Shown in pieces: positions 476 through 5,233 of a stretch of DNA of 5,233 bases. The notes below the pieces were generated by a model that ran no database searches, was not told the DNA's origin, and worked only from the letters and a program-made list of their open reading frames with translations. Source of the stretch: a virus (lineage: Duplodnaviria; Heunggongvirae; Uroviricota; Caudoviricetes); the IMG/VR virus record IMGVR_UViG_2660238548_000009; one strand, given 5' to 3'. A program made the position numbers and the translations under genes. How positions within the stretch are numbered: the stretch's first letter is position 1; the number at the start of each line of letters is the position of its first letter.

Positions 476-504
476 AAAAAAATTGCCCTCACACTGGAGG
501 GCAA
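476..504 (-). terminator. Intrinsic terminator for leftward transcription (hairpin plus U7), lambda tL2-like position
   Basis: Minus-strand RNA reads UU-GCCCUC-CAGUGU-GAGGGC-AA followed directly by UUUUUUU (complement of A-run 476..482). Core stem 485..490/497..502, extendable by two A-U pairs. Confidence 0.5.
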
Positions 505-565
505 AGAAGATTTCCAATAATCAGAACAAGTCGGCTCCTGTTTAGTTACGAGCGACATTGCTCCG

Positions 566-592
566 TGTATTCACTCGTTGGAATGAATACAC
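566..592 (-). other. Perfect 9-bp inverted repeat (GTGTATTCA / TGAATACAC, 9-nt loop); possible RNA hairpin or processing site
   Basis: gtgtattca (566..574) is the exact reverse complement of tgaatacac (584..592). No U-tract follows on either strand, so it is not a canonical terminator. Confidence 0.4.
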
Positions 593-606
593 AGTGCTTA
601 TTCGTA

Positions 607-1077
607 CTAATAAAATACCCAATTTTCTGTTTCTTGGTTATGTCCAAAGTTATATTCAATATCTGGTGTTGATGTATCAATATTTTTCATCCCATCAACA
701 AGAGTTGATACAACAGCCAAATCTTGTTTTATTCTCATTAAATGGTATTTCTTCCGGCGCAATAAACTTTCAATAGCAAGTTTCTTCGTTGGGAATGCAA
801 AAGATCTTTCTGCATTTTTTGCTACTTTCTTAATTGCATATCTATTTCTCCTTTGTTTCCATTCCTGTAACCACTGATTTGGTGCTGGTTTAAAATTAAC
901 AATCCAATGCGCAGGAACCAACCATGCATAATGCTCTGTCTGATGAAAAGCTATATATTGAAGTGCGAATATTTTTATCCCATCTTCTTCAACTGTCGCC
1001 TGGAATCTCCAGAAAACAGGCATTCCATCATGTTCAGTTTCTAATTCAGGAAAAGGTACGCTCCATGATTTTGTCAT
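607..1077 (-). CDS. Hypothetical 156-aa protein, function unknown (occupies the ral/sieB slot downstream of N)
   Basis: ORF-track ORF with SD GAGGTGA (complement of 1081..1087) 6 nt upstream of ATG 1077..1075. Acidic N-terminal part and a strongly basic central segment (KQRRNRYAIKKVAKNAERSFAFPTKKLAIESLLRRKKYHLMRIKQ). Co-oriented with N. Confidence 0.65.
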   Translation of the reverse strand: MTKSWSVPFPELETEHDGMPVFWRFQATVEEDGIKIFALQYIAFHQTEHYAWLVPAHWIVNFKPAPNQWLQEWKQRRNRYAIKKVAKNAERSFAFPTKKLAIESLLRRKKYHLMRIKQDLAVVSTLVDGMKNIDTSTPDIEYNFGHNQETENWVFY

Positions 1078-1135
1078 ATCTCACCTCAAATAAGTGGTTT
1101 GCTGCCTAATTTCATTTTCTGGCGACCAACACAAG

Positions 1136-1519
1136 TCACCTCGCCGTCAGTTGTTTGGATTTCCGGTAGCCTGCCGCGTAAATGGCTACGTTTGGAAGAC
1201 ATACACCAGTTTCTGGTTGCTTATGTCCAAACTCATTCGCGTACACAATGGCCGCTCGCTCCAGATTGCGTCTGTATTCTTTCTGTTGCCAGATCACGTC
1301 CTGTGCCATGAACTTAATTGGCTTAGCGTCTTCTATACGCTCAGGCGTTTCGTGAGTACCTTTAGCCTGAATCTGCGCTCTGCTTAGAGTAGGGCGGTGT
1401 AATACTTCTGAACTTATTGCTTCTTCGCGGGCCAGTACGCCGTTAGCTAATGCCTTTACCTTTAAACGCTCACGACGACGAGAACGTGAATTGCCTTTGA
1501 ACTGAGTTCTGCGTGTCAT
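1136..1519 (-). CDS. N: N-type transcription antiterminator, non-lambda specificity (P22/21/H-19B-like)
   Basis: 127-aa product MTRRTQFKGNSRSRRRERLKVKA... has an N-terminal arginine-rich motif typical of N-family proteins. Start ATG 1519..1517 has SD AGGAGG (complement of 1525..1530). The 46 extra upstream codons of ORF 1136..1657 lack an RBS and lie in the PL leader. Sits immediately downstream of PL/OL. Confidence 0.8.
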   Translation of the reverse strand: MTRRTQFKGNSRSRRRERLKVKALANGVLAREEAISSEVLHRPTLSRAQIQAKGTHETPERIEDAKPIKFMAQDVIWQQKEYRRNLERAAIVYANEFGHKQPETGVCLPNVAIYAAGYRKSKQLTAR

Positions 1520-1675
1520 ATAGACCTCCTGATGAACTTTGGTGGTGTGGTAGGTGGGAGACCCATTTCGACCTACTTCAATTCGGCAATAGTCCCGCAG
1601 GCCTCGCCGCTTTACGTGCGACATATTCCCGTCCATGAACCCTTCACCACACCCCAAAGTTCACTTTGGTTATTG

Positions 1676-1690
1676 CGCTTTGTCAGCGCC
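1676..1690 (-). promoter_or_regulatory. nutL boxB-like RNA hairpin (GCGCU-GACAA-AGCGC)
   Basis: Minus-strand transcript carries GCGCUGACAAAGCGC (5-bp stem, 5-nt GNRA-like loop) about 60 nt downstream of the predicted PL start. It matches my recollection of the P22-type nutL boxB and fits the non-lambda N. No convincing boxA (CGCTCTTA-like) was found upstream. Confidence 0.55.
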
Positions 1691-1757
1691 GTAGATTCAT
1701 ATTCGAATCGTTGTATATTCACCGCCCTGGTGAGTAGTGCGTCCTGCTGATGTGTTT

Positions 1758-1786
1758 AGTATCACCGCCAGTGGTATTTGTGTCAA
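1758..1786 (-). promoter_or_regulatory. PL promoter (-35 TTGACA, -10 GATACT, 17-bp spacer)
   Basis: Minus strand: TTGACA is the complement of 1781..1786 and GATACT the complement of 1758..1763. Overlaps OL1/OL2 exactly as in lambda. Confidence 0.85.
1760..1776. promoter_or_regulatory. Operator OL1
   Basis: TATCACCGCCAGTGGTA, identical to lambda OL1 as recalled. Confidence 0.9.
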
Positions 1787-1800
1787 CACCGCTAGAGATA
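1784..1800. promoter_or_regulatory. Operator OL2 (one substitution relative to lambda)
   Basis: CAACACCGCTAGAGATA; lambda has CAACACCGCCAGAGATA. The C-to-T change at 1793 creates CTAG. Confidence 0.85.
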
Positions 1801-1803
1801 ATT

Positions 1804-1820
1804 CATCACCGCAGATGGTT
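1804..1820. promoter_or_regulatory. Operator OL3 (position-1 variant)
   Basis: CATCACCGCAGATGGTT; lambda has TATCACCGCAGATGGTT. Confidence 0.8.
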
Positions 1821-1970
1821 ATCTGTATGTTTTTTATATGAATTTATTTTTTGCAGGGGGGCATTGTTTGGTAGGTGAGAGATCAGAATTGCACTGTTTA
1901 GCAAGTTGTATCTATCAATTTTTCAATAAATACAATGAGTTATGTTTTTTTAGGTGGGGGATCGCGAGGC

Positions 1971-1996
1971 AAAGAAAACCCGGCGCTGAGGCCGGG
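1971..1996 (-). terminator. Intrinsic terminator ending the cI-linked operon (lambda timm-like)
   Basis: Stem CCCGGC (1979..1984) / GCCGGG (1991..1996) with a 6-nt loop. On the minus-strand RNA the hairpin is followed by UUUUCUUU (complement of 1971..1978). It lies immediately after the stop of the 55-aa ORF. Confidence 0.6.
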
Positions 1997-2161
1997 CTAG
2001 ATTTTAAAGTATTTATCTTTTAGAGATGTAGATGTAAAACTTTTCGCCTTTGAAAATTTTTTGTCATCAGAAGGGCTTATGAACTCATCTTTTTTGTAGG
2101 GAACCGCTAATGCTGCATCACGTCTGCGAGGCAGCTTGCTTACTTCCTCGCGCTTTTTCAT
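1997..2161 (-). CDS. Putative small lysine-rich protein (55 aa), not in the supplied ORF track
   Basis: Hand translation of the minus strand from ATG 2161..2159: MKKREEVSKLPRRRDAALAVPYKKDEFISPSDDKKFSKAKSFTSTSLKDKYFKI, stop TAG 1999..1997. The ATG lies 2 nt after the kinase stop (TGA-TC-ATG); weak SD AGGA 9 nt upstream. It fills the whole gap between the kinase and the terminator in AT-rich sequence. Confidence 0.35.
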   Translation of the reverse strand: MKKREEVSKLPRRRDAALAVPYKKDEFISPSDDKKFSKAKSFTSTSLKDKYFKI

Positions 2162-2163
2162 GA

Positions 2164-3210
2164 TCAGTTATCCTTTAATAACCTATACAGTTTTGTAGGG
2201 GTACATCCTGAGGATATTGTTAAGTTCGTAGCACGCCTTTTCCGCCCATCATCGTATAAACGAAAACCAGTAGTAGACGAATTTTCTGCGTCAAAAACTA
2301 TAGACAGTATAGCGTCCCCAGACTTTTTTTGCCATTCGCATGTGCCGTTAGTTGGTTTCGTCATCTGTAGACGCCAGTCAAGAACGCCATCACTTATAGC
2401 TGAGAGATCGTTTAGTACATCTAGTACGGATTGATATCTTTCATTTGGATCTACATGAATGCATTTGTTCACTATTGTTATTAATTTTTTATGTATATGG
2501 GGAGGATACTCTTTTAATGGATAGCAGCCATTAATTATCGACTCTCTGAGTTGTTCAATCGTGCTAAATGCAGATCTTTCTCTTTCAAAATTATCATGTC
2601 CAACACACATTCTATATATGGTTAATCCTGCCTGATATATGTCATATGTGAAATTATAATCATTTGTTGATAAAGAAAAATATTCCGGTGGCACATGAAA
2701 ATGATATCCAAACTCAGGCGCAGCTCTCGATTCCTCATTGACTAACTGAGATAATCCAAAGTCAGATAGCATGGCCTCATTTCTGTTTGATATCATAATG
2801 TTATTAGGTTTTATATCAAAATGCATAAGACCTTTTGAGTGTATATGATAAAGTCCACTTAAAAATTGAATGGAATACCGTATTATCTCCCTGCTTGTAA
2901 GATTATTTTTTTTCATTAATTGGTTTAGCGAACCATTATGATAAAATGGCATGGCTATATAGATATTGCTCTCACATTGAGCAGCATACTGAACTTGCAC
3001 AATATTTGGATGTGCATGTTTATAGAGAAGCCTTGCTTCATTAAAGTAGTCGTCGTGGTTAGTGTTTTCTTTTTTTTCTATTTCTTTAATCACCAAGTCA
3101 TGAGCTAGGTGTCTGTCATGAGCCAGATATACTTTTGAAAAACAACCCTGTTCTTCTAGATCACTAATCCATTCGAATTCTACATCAGCTCTTTTGTATG
3201 GAGTTAGCAT
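2164..3210 (-). CDS. Eukaryotic-like (Hanks-type) Ser/Thr protein kinase, 348 aa, with a roughly 80-aa non-kinase C-terminal extension
   Basis: Kinase subdomain motifs in canonical order: degenerate Gly loop QGCFSKV (res 21-27); VIK with catalytic Lys42 (codon 3085..3087); catalytic loop HFDIKPNN with Asp132 (2815..2817), the D-x-K-x-x-N form typical of Ser/Thr kinases; DFG 150-152 (2755..2763); PPE 174-176; DIYQAG; HVDPNER. SD GGAGG upstream; the start overlaps the stop of the upstream gene. Confidence 0.9.
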   Translation of the reverse strand: MLTPYKRADVEFEWISDLEEQGCFSKVYLAHDRHLAHDLVIKEIEKKENTNHDDYFNEARLLYKHAHPNIVQVQYAAQCESNIYIAMPFYHNGSLNQLMKKNNLTSREIIRYSIQFLSGLYHIHSKGLMHFDIKPNNIMISNRNEAMLSDFGLSQLVNEESRAAPEFGYHFHVPPEYFSLSTNDYNFTYDIYQAGLTIYRMCVGHDNFERERSAFSTIEQLRESIINGCYPLKEYPPHIHKKLITIVNKCIHVDPNERYQSVLDVLNDLSAISDGVLDWRLQMTKPTNGTCEWQKKSGDAILSIVFDAENSSTTGFRLYDDGRKRRATNLTISSGCTPTKLYRLLKDN

Positions 3211-3665
3211 CCCCTTACCTCCGCAGATAGTGCAGCCAAAACAGCTTCATTTGTTTCAGTTGTAAAACCAGAATTATCGATTCCATTTATATTGCGGTGT
3301 GACTTCAATATTTCTTTATACTCGATCTCTGTTAGGTTCAATGATGATTTCATGCCAGATTTTCTAATAGTGTAATATTTTCTTACATCACTGCTTGAAA
3401 ATGCTTCTTGAATAACAGCTTCTATATAAAGGCGGTCAATGCTAAGATTATCAGAGTTTGATTCAGTAACGCGTATGGCAGCTAATTCAACATTATATAA
3501 ATTAAGAATGTCGAGGATGTTATTTCTCACATACTTTAATTTTTCTGGTGTGTCTAAGGTCGAAGGTATTTTAATGACATCAACACATTTGAGTGCAGAC
3601 TCATTAGTGCAATATACAACAAAAGATGTAACTTTGGGCGCCGCTCTAACACCTAGTATTCTCAT
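3204..3665 (-). CDS. Hypothetical 153-aa protein, translationally coupled to the kinase; possible RNase H-like/RuvC-like fold (weak, by eye)
   Basis: ORF-track ORF. Its stop TAA (3206..3204) overlaps the kinase ATG (3210..3208) as ATGCTAA. Segments MRILGVRAAPKVTSFVVY, PEKLKYV...LAAIRV and NEAVLAALSAE resemble the RuvC segments ILGIDPGSRVTGYGV, PSRLKLI...FAIEQV and DAADALAIAI, but Arg sits where the first two catalytic acidic residues would be. Confidence 0.7.
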   Translation of the reverse strand: MRILGVRAAPKVTSFVVYCTNESALKCVDVIKIPSTLDTPEKLKYVRNNILDILNLYNVELAAIRVTESNSDNLSIDRLYIEAVIQEAFSSSDVRKYYTIRKSGMKSSLNLTEIEYKEILKSHRNINGIDNSGFTTETNEAVLAALSAEVRGC

Positions 3666-3716
3666 TTTTTATATCCTATTTTAGAATCAGGCCGCATCTC
3701 TGCGACCATCCATCAT

Positions 3717-3731
3717 CCAAACGTCTCTTCA
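3717..3731. repeat. 15-bp direct repeat, copy 1 (ccaaacgtctcttca), downstream of the 113-aa gene
   Basis: Exact 15-nt match to 4088..4102. On the minus strand it reads TGAAGAGACGTTTGG followed by ATGA, i.e. a copy of the cI C-terminal codons EETFG plus an in-frame stop. Confidence 0.9.
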
Positions 3732-3732
3732 C

Positions 3733-4074
3733 TCATCCGAAGAAGCAGCAATCCGGGTCAGCACGCACAAGCTCAAGCGCATCAGTCAGCGAAAGTTCAG
3801 TACTGTACTGATGCCATTTCATATCCTTCCGCATCCAATAGATTTTCCATCTATCCAGAGAACGTATGTACTTGATTCTTGCTGATGGCAGGATGTTTGT
3901 TTCACCTGGGTTGCCCTGCCACACGGGGCGCTGTTCGCCGATATCTATCGTTTGGTCATTGATGCTATAAACAATATCCAGTTCATTGCGGATATGTTCA
4001 GGCGGCCTTATGCTTTCAATGAATTGGTGAACTTCTTTTTTGACCGCTTGATATTCAAGGTCAGTGAACGCCAT
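3733..4074 (-). CDS. Hypothetical 113-aa protein, first gene downstream of cI (occupies the rexA position)
   Basis: ORF-track ORF. ATG 4074..4072 lies 9 nt after the cI stop with a strong SD GAGGAGGA (complement of 4078..4085) inside the cI 3' end. W/Y-rich (WKIYWMRKDMKWHQY), ends in CCFFG. No motif I can assign. Confidence 0.7.
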   Translation of the reverse strand: MAFTDLEYQAVKKEVHQFIESIRPPEHIRNELDIVYSINDQTIDIGEQRPVWQGNPGETNILPSARIKYIRSLDRWKIYWMRKDMKWHQYSTELSLTDALELVRADPDCCFFG

Positions 4075-4083
4075 CTATCCTCC

Positions 4084-4800
<717 letters not shown>

Positions 4801-4803
4801 TTA

Positions 4804-4832
4804 AATCTATCACCGCAAGGGATAAATATCTA
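4804..4832 (-). promoter_or_regulatory. PRM promoter (-35 TAGATA, -10 TAGATT, 17-bp spacer)
   Basis: Minus strand: TAGATA is the complement of 4827..4832 and TAGATT the complement of 4804..4809. The -10 ends 7 nt before the cI ATG, consistent with a leaderless cI mRNA. Confidence 0.85.
4808..4824. promoter_or_regulatory. Operator OR3
   Basis: TATCACCGCAAGGGATA, identical to lambda OR3 as recalled. Confidence 0.9.
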
Positions 4833-4847
4833 ACACCGTGCGTGTTG
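4831..4847. promoter_or_regulatory. Operator OR2
   Basis: TAACACCGTGCGTGTTG, identical to lambda OR2 as recalled. Confidence 0.9.
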
Positions 4848-4873
4848 ACTATTATACCTCTAGCGGTGATAAT
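4845..4873 (+). promoter_or_regulatory. PR promoter (-35 TTGACT, -10 GATAAT, 17-bp spacer)
   Basis: TTGACT at 4845..4850 and GATAAT at 4868..4873, overlapping OR2/OR1. SD AGGAGG at 4888..4893 precedes cro. Confidence 0.9.
4855..4871. promoter_or_regulatory. Operator OR1 (one substitution relative to lambda)
   Basis: TACCTCTAGCGGTGATA; lambda has TACCTCTGGCGGTGATA. The G-to-A change at 4862 creates CTAG. Confidence 0.85.
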
Positions 4874-4897
4874 GATTGCCTGTACTAAGGAGGTTGT

Positions 4898-5098
4898 ATG
4901 GAACAACGCATAACCCTGAAAGATTATGCAATACGCTTTGGGCAAACCAAGGCGGCTAAAGATCTCGGCGTATATCAAAGCGCGATTAACAAGGCCATTC
5001 ATGCAGGCCGAAAGATTTTTTTAACTATAAACGCTGATGGAAGCGTTTATGCGGAAGAAATAAAGCCCTTCCCAAGTAACAAAAAAACAACTGCATAA
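4898..5098 (+). CDS. cro: Cro repressor, lambda-type (66 aa)
   Basis: [66 protein letters not shown] is near-identical to lambda Cro as recalled (three conservative differences). Sits directly downstream of PR/OR1. Confidence 0.95.
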
Positions 5099-5233
5099 GT
5101 AACACCGTGAGGTGTACTGGCAATAGCGGACACTACCATTTGTTCTTTTTTTAAGCAGCCATCTGATGATATTTTTCCCTGAAGGCTGCCGGGGAGATAT
5201 TCCCCAGACGAGAGTGACGACGCTGACGATTGT

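Follow-up and report, generated by a model that had tools for sequence, protein, structure and literature searches.

The 933W Stk cassette in an HK97/lambda-type immunity region

We analyzed a 5,233-nt stretch of DNA from a tailed phage (Caudoviricetes; IMG/VR virus record IMGVR_UViG_2660238548_000009), hereafter called the window, in which four genes occupy the slot between the repressor gene cI and the terminator on the OL side. It is very probable that this rex-slot segment is the Stk exclusion cassette of phage 933W (L0084-L0083-stk-L0081-tM), swapped by recombination into a prophage with HK97/lambda-type immunity, and that the cassette is composite, with a conserved core of L0083 and the kinase Stk in which L0083 would be a regulator or sensor. 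The cassette as such has already been characterized, and it stands here in a slightly new mosaic setting. Two points go beyond the literature that we found: the four genes appear to divide into two independent modules, and the kinase and a RuvC-fold protein lacking the catalytic acids appear to be a strictly conserved pair across phyla. All coordinates refer to the window unless another locus is named.

The segment from 1923 to 4111 showed 99.4% DNA identity to 933W by megablast, and dozens of Shiga toxin (Stx) phages matched it likewise. At the protein level, Stk (348/348 amino acids), L0083 (153/153), and L0081 (54/54) were identical to their 933W counterparts, and L0084 differed by two substitutions (111/113). 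Since Stk, L0083, and L0081 are identical to the 933W proteins, the question raised in the initial annotation, i.e., whether the kinase is a Stk orthologue or belongs to a distinct lineage, is settled: as far as sequence can tell, it is 933W Stk itself and not merely a Stk-like lineage. With this identity, the central inference of that annotation, which placed a kinase-based module for exclusion or abortive infection in the rexAB slot, was right and can be stated more strongly. The location also fits that in 933W, whose record is annotated in the order pM, cI, L0084, L0083, stk, L0081, and tM: the cassette lies directly 3' of cI in the same direction, with no terminator between them, and ends at tM. 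Besides, 39 phage records and 193 of the 5426 complete Escherichia coli genomes contained at least 80% of the query segment (window 1900-4200).

Organization of the cassette

Four co-directional open reading frames (ORFs) on the minus strand occupy the gap from the cI stop to the intrinsic terminator: L0084 (3733-4074; 113 amino acids), L0083 (3204-3665; 153 amino acids), stk (2164-3210; 348 amino acids), and L0081 (1997-2161; a small basic protein of 54 amino acids). The cI TGA is followed by a 9-nt spacer, GGAGGATAG, which carries a strong GGAGGA Shine-Dalgarno sequence, and then by the L0084 ATG. The L0083 and stk genes share a 7-nt overlap (ATGCTAA), and 2 nt separate the stk stop from the L0081 start. 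The TAG stop of L0081 merges into an 8-bp stem with six GC pairs at 1998-1977, which is followed by TTTTCTTT. This intrinsic terminator (1968-1998, minus strand, with its T-run) is tM in the 933W annotation and the equivalent of lambda t-imm, and RNA folding gave it -15.5 kcal/mol (z = -2.2). A scan of the minus strand from cI to 1998 for terminator-like sites found no further one, and promoter-like matches inside the window (9, against 12.8 expected from shuffled sequence) were at or below chance. These structural features, from the close packing of the ORFs and the Shine-Dalgarno sequence behind cI to the ATGCTAA overlap and the end of the unit at the terminator, had all been described in the initial annotation and hold; so do the sizes of the first three ORFs, and only the last, given there as 55 amino acids, had to be corrected, since its 165 nt include the stop codon and thus encode 54.

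Profile searches, which had been suggested as a check, matched all four ORFs to PHROG families with E values from 2.5e-39 to 3e-142, besides Pfam Pkinase for the kinase and DUF3024 for the 113-residue protein. These matches, together with the many homologues, indicate that the four ORFs are real genes and not chance frames. In a lysogen, transcription from PRM would read through cI into the cassette and halt at the terminator at about 1977-1998, as reported for 933W and as the sequence here is consistent with.

Immunity region and cassette boundaries

The repressor gene cI (4084-4797, minus strand; Pfam HTH_3 and Peptidase_S24), the first gene of the maintenance transcript and the one that sets the lambda/HK97 immunity, encodes a 237-residue protein identical to HK97 cI at 237/237 positions and to lambda cI at 235/237. 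The operator region with divergent PRM and PR (4808-4873) contains exact lambda operators at OR3 (4808-4824) and OR2 (4831-4847), one mismatch to the lambda operator at OR1 (4855-4871), and a PR-like promoter, TTGACT-17-GATAAT, at 4845-4873. On the other side, the lambda/HK97-type OL1-OL3 and PL region (1758-1820, minus strand) includes an exact lambda operator at OL1 and a PL-like promoter, TTGACA-17-GATACT, at 1786-1758; this OL/PL region is 91% identical to lambda and 95% identical to HK97.

Identity to HK97 is 95.3% over window positions 477-1994 and 96.9% over 4082-5107; the HK97 matches stop at 1994 and restart at 4082, which puts the breakpoints precisely at the terminator and the cI stop. 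Lambda matches in the window were confined to 1719-1996 (from OL/PL up to the terminator, 91%) and 4084-5107 (cI-cro, 96%). Lambda 35825-37114 had no match in the window, and the Pfam matches of the window proteins are unrelated to RexA and RexB; rex-like ORFs are thus missing from the slot, as had been noticed beforehand. The slot holds gp48 and gp49 in HK97 and rexAB in lambda. Both of its edges recur elsewhere: lambda, HK97, and 933W all have the terminator region (1923-1996), and the last 16 nt of cI with the stop codon (…PEETFG*) remain as a relic 3' of the unrelated cI of 933W itself and also close a third cI allele in viral contigs (locus L064). In the 933W locus (L001, 4652-4711), the last approximately 28 nt of a lambda-type cI (…QWPEETFG*) are kept 3' of the different cI of that phage, a scar of earlier recombination. 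Natural E. coli prophages, e.g., that of strain OkiPb01678, share the layout of lambda-type cI followed by the Stk cassette.

Judged from these matches, the cassette was exchanged cleanly at conserved boundary sequences, with the cI 3' end on the right and the t-imm terminator on the left. Recombination at these two boundary sequences would have replaced the rex-slot cargo of a prophage with HK97/lambda immunity. The case shows how lambdoid phages exchange rex-slot cargo at two short conserved boundaries, and there is some irony in it: a kinase that kills HK97-infected cells sits in a prophage bearing HK97's own immunity region.

L0083 and Stk as an obligate pair

A profile of the L0083 family scanned against one genome per species yielded 39 loci, and a Stk homologue lay immediately 3' of the L0083 homologue in all 39. 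These loci span Alpha-, Beta-, and Gammaproteobacteria, Bacteroidota, Firmicutes, and Acidobacteriota. The same pair was found in eight of eight further contexts, where the search had started from an L0083 homologue in four and from a distant Stk homologue in the other four (Pseudomonas, Acinetobacter, Elizabethkingia, and Vibrio), with 37 to 70% identity to L0083; Terasakiella and a contig beside Wadjet are also among these contexts. In 38 of 46 loci, the two genes overlap by 1, 4, 7, or 8 nt or are separated by a gap of at most 9 nt, which indicates translational coupling of L0083 and Stk. Besides, the distance matrices of the two proteins were correlated (Mantel r = 0.86), a value reached by none of 2000 permutations. 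The pair has as neighbors Abi_2, a LlaJI restriction-modification (R-M) system with ArdA, type I R-M, Wadjet JetABCD, integrases, prophage repressors, and a moron slot in a tail region, all of which are typical defence and mobile contexts. This conservation of order and spacing argues that L0083 and Stk form a conserved functional unit, apparently an obligate pair in at least four phyla. A literature search found no paper on a RuvC-like protein paired with a kinase in defence.

Nature of L0083

By fold comparison, L0083 has a RuvC/RNase H-like fold and matches RuvC and phage RuvC resolvases; its structural neighbors include RuvC-fold pseudonucleases, e.g., TEFM and the YqgF domains of Tex/Spt6. 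Its sequence identity to RuvC resolvases is 13 to 17%. No Pfam family matched L0083, RuvC included, and sequence searches of the PDB (phmmer with L0083 and hmmsearch with the family profile) matched no solved structure. The N-terminal ILGVRAAP aligns with ILGIDPGS of RuvC, which places R7 on the catalytic D7 and R65 on E66. The family comprises 451 clusters at 50% identity (E ≤ 1e-3), and among 122 divergent representatives, position 7 was Arg in 121, position 65 was Arg or Lys in all 122, and position 140 was Glu or Asp in all 122; R47, R78, E82, and E87 were each present in 122/122 and E68 in 120/122. On this weak sequence alignment, only E140, equivalent to D141, is kept from the RuvC tetrad (D7, E66, D138, and D141 in E. 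coli), and position 137 is variable.

These residues bear on two other readings of the protein. According to the first, L0083 would be an ordinary phage Holliday-junction resolvase for recombination that lies beside stk by accident, as its names imply (PHROG 3875, "RuvC-like Holliday junction resolvase," and RefSeq "RuvC family protein") and as the agreement of its fold with RuvC and phage RuvC resolvases would allow. However, the catalytic tetrad is not conserved, L0083 sits in the lysogenic cI transcript outside the recombination and nin regions, and its linkage to a kinase, which is 100% across phyla and holds also in defence islands outside phages (with Abi_2, LlaJI R-M and ArdA, type I R-M, or Wadjet), is incompatible with chance adjacency; we therefore give an accidental resolvase hardly any credence. 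The second would make L0083 the effector, a noncanonical nuclease that either becomes active once Stk has phosphorylated it or works on junctions in phage DNA, the sensing being done by the kinase. Four acidic residues that are invariant or nearly so speak for such a nuclease, whereas the metal-binding beta-1 Asp of RuvC/RNase H-like nucleases is the Arg at position 7, the beta-4 acid is the Arg or Lys at position 65, the structural neighbors include pseudonucleases, and the published phenotype is credited to kinase activity. The replacement of the metal-binding Asp by Arg speaks against a nuclease with canonical two-metal chemistry, and we consider a nuclease effector unlikely. We infer instead that L0083 is a RuvC-fold pseudonuclease and not a resolvase, and that it acts as a regulatory or sensing subunit of the kinase.

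Stk kinase and a possible two-protein mechanism

Stk matched Pfam Pkinase with 158.8 bits (cut-off, 31.7) and has the features of a Hanks-type (eukaryotic-like) kinase, i.e., the catalytic Lys, the HxD Asp, and DFG. K42 (VIK) and D132 (HFD, as in a non-RD kinase) lie at the positions assigned in the initial annotation, DFG150 is intact as well, and the glycine-rich loop is degenerate (EQGCFSKV). At E ≤ 1e-10, the Stk family numbers 543 kinases. Published reports state that 933W Stk is cotranscribed with cI and that, in a 933W lysogen, infection by HK97 is aborted by the activity of the kinase (PMC3564112), and that Stk shows little or no activity in the absence of infection and becomes activated upon HK97 infection (PMC3681748); Stk is also listed beside Rex among prophage abortive-infection systems in a further paper (PMC6356687). 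If the cassette works as stated for 933W, Stk would be largely inactive before infection, would be activated by HK97 infection, and would then abort that infection.

The HK97 genes run in the order Gp40, erf, two small ORFs, and kil (Gp43), and the erf product matched Pfam ERF (E 2e-44). From this order, we infer that HK97 gene 41 encodes an Erf-type single-strand annealing protein. Friedman et al. reportedly found in 2011 that HK97 gp41 is needed for Stk activation, and activated Stk is said in the same work to phosphorylate many cell proteins on tyrosine, whereupon the infected cell dies or stops growing. If gene 41 indeed encodes an annealing protein of the Erf type, it would make mechanistic sense for the kinase to be coupled to a junction-binding fold. 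A natural prophage with the same layout of cI and Stk (L004, 963-2727) has lambda Red (exo/bet/gam) and not Erf (the HK97 erf region is at L021, 3176-3781), which is consistent with avoidance of self-triggering. Some E. coli prophages carry stk as a pseudogene, with the annotation "missing N-terminus" in one case (L002, 6261-7115) and a split into 84 and 262 amino acids in another (L068, 8865-9910), and L0083, L0084, and L0081 remain intact in prophages of this kind; the pseudogenes may reflect a fitness cost of the kinase.

Taken further, Stk could supply the catalysis in a defence system of two obligate partners, in which the RuvC-fold pseudonuclease either clamps the kinase off or senses phage recombination (Erf-type proteins or branched DNA), a proposal that we make tentatively and at less than even confidence. 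As an inhibitor, L0083 would keep Stk off in the manner of an upstream-encoded antitoxin, which fits the silence of Stk until infection. As a sensor, it would recognize the phage trigger or the recombination intermediates made by an Erf-type protein. If the proposal is true, it defines an unnamed defence family and would explain how a kinase "reads" a phage recombinase, and the pairing with a RuvC-fold protein could reveal how defence kinases of this class are restrained and triggered.

Several points weigh against the identification and the proposal built on it. The placement of R7 on D7 and of R65 on E66 rests on a low-probability sequence alignment and on secondary-structure order rather than on an inspected superposition, and E68, E82, E87, and E140, which vary little or not at all in the family, could make up a different active site. 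The equation of gp41 with Erf comes only from gene order. Should plasmid-borne stk by itself be enough to exclude HK97, the role of L0083 is no more than that of a modulator. Prophage and HK97 are homoimmune, so that the repressor itself would stop that phage and the targets of the cassette here must be other phages. Finally, an insertion sequence (IS) element next to cro, described below, indicates that the prophage is probably defective, though cI and the Stk cassette are intact.

L0084 as an independent cassette

L0084 matched Pfam DUF3024 with 108.7 bits (cut-off, 24.9; model positions 2-112 of 112) and the PADLOC model PDC-S43 over its full length (E 7e-42; model positions 1-115 of 115), a label that marks it as a candidate defence protein. 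With a GC content of 0.459, L0084 resembles cI, and L0083 and stk are at 0.35. The gene is bracketed by a 19-nt direct repeat (family D1; 18/19 identical; minus strand), of which copy 1 (4084-4102), TGAAGAGACGTTTGG(G/A)TGA, is the conserved cI 3' end (…PEETFG*) and copy 2 (3713-3731) lies directly 3' of the L0084 stop. Copy 2 is followed by the relic of the start of another rex-slot gene, ATGATGGATGGTCGCAGAGATGCG, and the same string opens a 162-residue ORF after cI in locus L064. The spacer between L0084 and L0083 (3666-3732) thus holds a second copy of the cI end and the first approximately 25 nt of the 162-residue gene of L064, a recombination scar. We also searched viral contigs for a junction from the cI end to L0083, i.e., a Stk cassette free of L0084; the four matches all had another cI allele and other cargo, which marks the repeat copy 3' of L0084 as the remnant of a different cI end together with the start of another rex-slot gene.

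An identical L0084 protein was found 3' of four distinct cI alleles, each with its own downstream cargo, more distant homologues lie in loci without any kinase, and a DUF3024 gene accompanies only 1 of the 39 species-level L0083-Stk loci. On this distribution, L0084 is an independent, freely recombining cI-proximal cassette and not a kinase accessory. The initial annotation had joined all four genes in one kinase-centered operon, of which the partnership of L0083 and stk stands and the inclusion of L0084 in the kinase system does not. A single integrated defence system, with DUF3024 and the 54-residue protein as Stk accessories, would agree with the close packing and common direction of the genes and with their one terminator; the four genes travel together at approximately 99% identity in the 39 phage records and 193 complete E. 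coli genomes given above, and Proteus penneri (L022) keeps the four-gene order at 37 to 69% identity. Yet the DUF3024 gene is missing in 38 of the 39 loci, the identical protein stands behind four cI alleles with unrelated cargo, its homologues occur in kinase-free loci, a direct repeat flanks the gene, its GC content (0.46) differs from that of L0083 and stk (0.35), and homologues of L0081 are detectable in Enterobacterales only. We regard an integrated four-protein system as very improbable and favor two modules, the L0083-Stk pair and the separate L0084 cassette.

A literature search on DUF3024 found no relevant paper and, as with the pairing of a RuvC-like protein and a kinase, the accessory proteins appear to be uncharacterized, in line with the first description of them. 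DUF3024 is flagged here as a very common, independent cI-proximal gene in E. coli prophages. Other cargo also occurs in the cI-proximal slot, behind DUF3024 or directly behind cI, namely, a pair of 144/162- and 206-residue ORFs and a 177-residue ORF, and these slot ORFs (L069, 8413-9464; L064, 3354-4459; L070, 8532-9065) had no informative Pfam match. The slot may thus be a reservoir of uncharacterized, lysogen-expressed genes.

L0081 and other features of the window

In Proteus (36%, E 2e-9; 38%, E 4e-6) and Klebsiella (E 1e-3), homologues of L0081 occupy the corresponding position, and none was detected outside Enterobacterales among the pair loci examined; L0081 is a lineage-restricted enterobacterial add-on to the kinase pair. 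L0081 (1997-2161) and its Proteus homologue share RRD.A.A.PY.K.D, of which the Klebsiella homologue keeps PY only (L011, 7508-7669; L007, 7482-7661), and the E. coli and Proteus proteins share a C-terminal KYFK(I/L). That the conserved tyrosine is a substrate or pseudosubstrate of Stk is pure speculation.

At the other end of the window, 5108-5233 matches, at 100% identity, the end of an IS600-family (IS3-like) element of locus L002. It begins 9 nt past the cro stop, which implies that nutR, tR1, and cII are severed from PR. This severed PR operon and the stk pseudogenes of the related prophages L002 and L068 might suggest that the cassette is inert cargo of a decaying prophage with no current phenotype. 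Against this, the four ORFs, cI, the operators, the PRM region, and the terminator are all intact, three of the four proteins have the very sequence of their functional 933W counterparts, and a defective prophage that still makes repressor still expresses the PRM operon; inert cargo is accordingly improbable, and we retain the reading of an intact exclusion cassette.

Three further features lie on the minus strand. A gene similar to P22 gp17, a superinfection-exclusion gene (152-517; Pfam GP17, E 1e-55; PHROG 1510), occupies the position of lambda ea10 and 933W ssb and gives this 5-kb window a second exclusion gene; positions 161-476 had no match to lambda, 933W, or HK97. The lambda cIII thermoregulator RNA (34-92; Rfam RF01804, 88.5 bits) was the sole Rfam match in the scan. 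L0079 (607-1077), the equivalent of HK97 Gp45, encodes 156 amino acids at a GC content of 0.348 between N and the gp17-like gene and is conserved in 933W and HK97; it had no Pfam, PADLOC, or NCBIfam match and is possibly another moron.

Comparison with known systems

The closest system is that of 933W, with the same kinase, the same neighbors (L0084, L0083, L0081, and tM), and the same position 3' of cI on the maintenance transcript. It differs from the cassette described here in the repressor and operators, which are of HK97/lambda type in the window and not of 933W type, and in the spacer between cI and L0084, which is 9 nt here and 60 nt in 933W. Published accounts treat Stk as a single-protein exclusion factor, and the RuvC-fold partner is not discussed in the searchable literature. 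Compared with RuvC Holliday-junction resolvases, L0083 is RuvC-like in fold only and is always linked to a kinase.

Among other kinases, Stk2 of staphylococci is said, in work by Depardieu et al. from 2016, to be a eukaryotic-like kinase that a phage protein activates and that brings about abortive infection, with phosphorylation of many host proteins. Its similarity to 933W Stk is merely that of a generic kinase domain, and to our knowledge it has no RuvC-fold partner; against the NCBIfam model of the PknB/Stk1 type, 933W Stk scored 122 bits, below the cut-off of 450 bits. The PADLOC models of PD-T4-6, the anti-phage Ser/Thr kinase of E. coli (Vassallo et al. 2022), matched Stk at E 1e-37. 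We considered Stk as a member of PD-T4-6 and rejected this on architecture: the match covers the kinase domain only (residues approximately 20-276), and PD-T4-6 is a lone ORF of 436 amino acids that was cloned alone, whereas Stk has 348 amino acids, a different C terminus, and an obligate upstream partner, L0083.

Lambda RexAB resembles the cassette in its slot, between cI and the OL-side terminator, in its cotranscription with cI, and in the abortive exclusion of heterologous phages. The two systems have no sequence or domain relationship, however: Rex consists of a sensor and a membrane ion channel, whereas the same slot holds here a Hanks-type kinase and a RuvC-fold protein.

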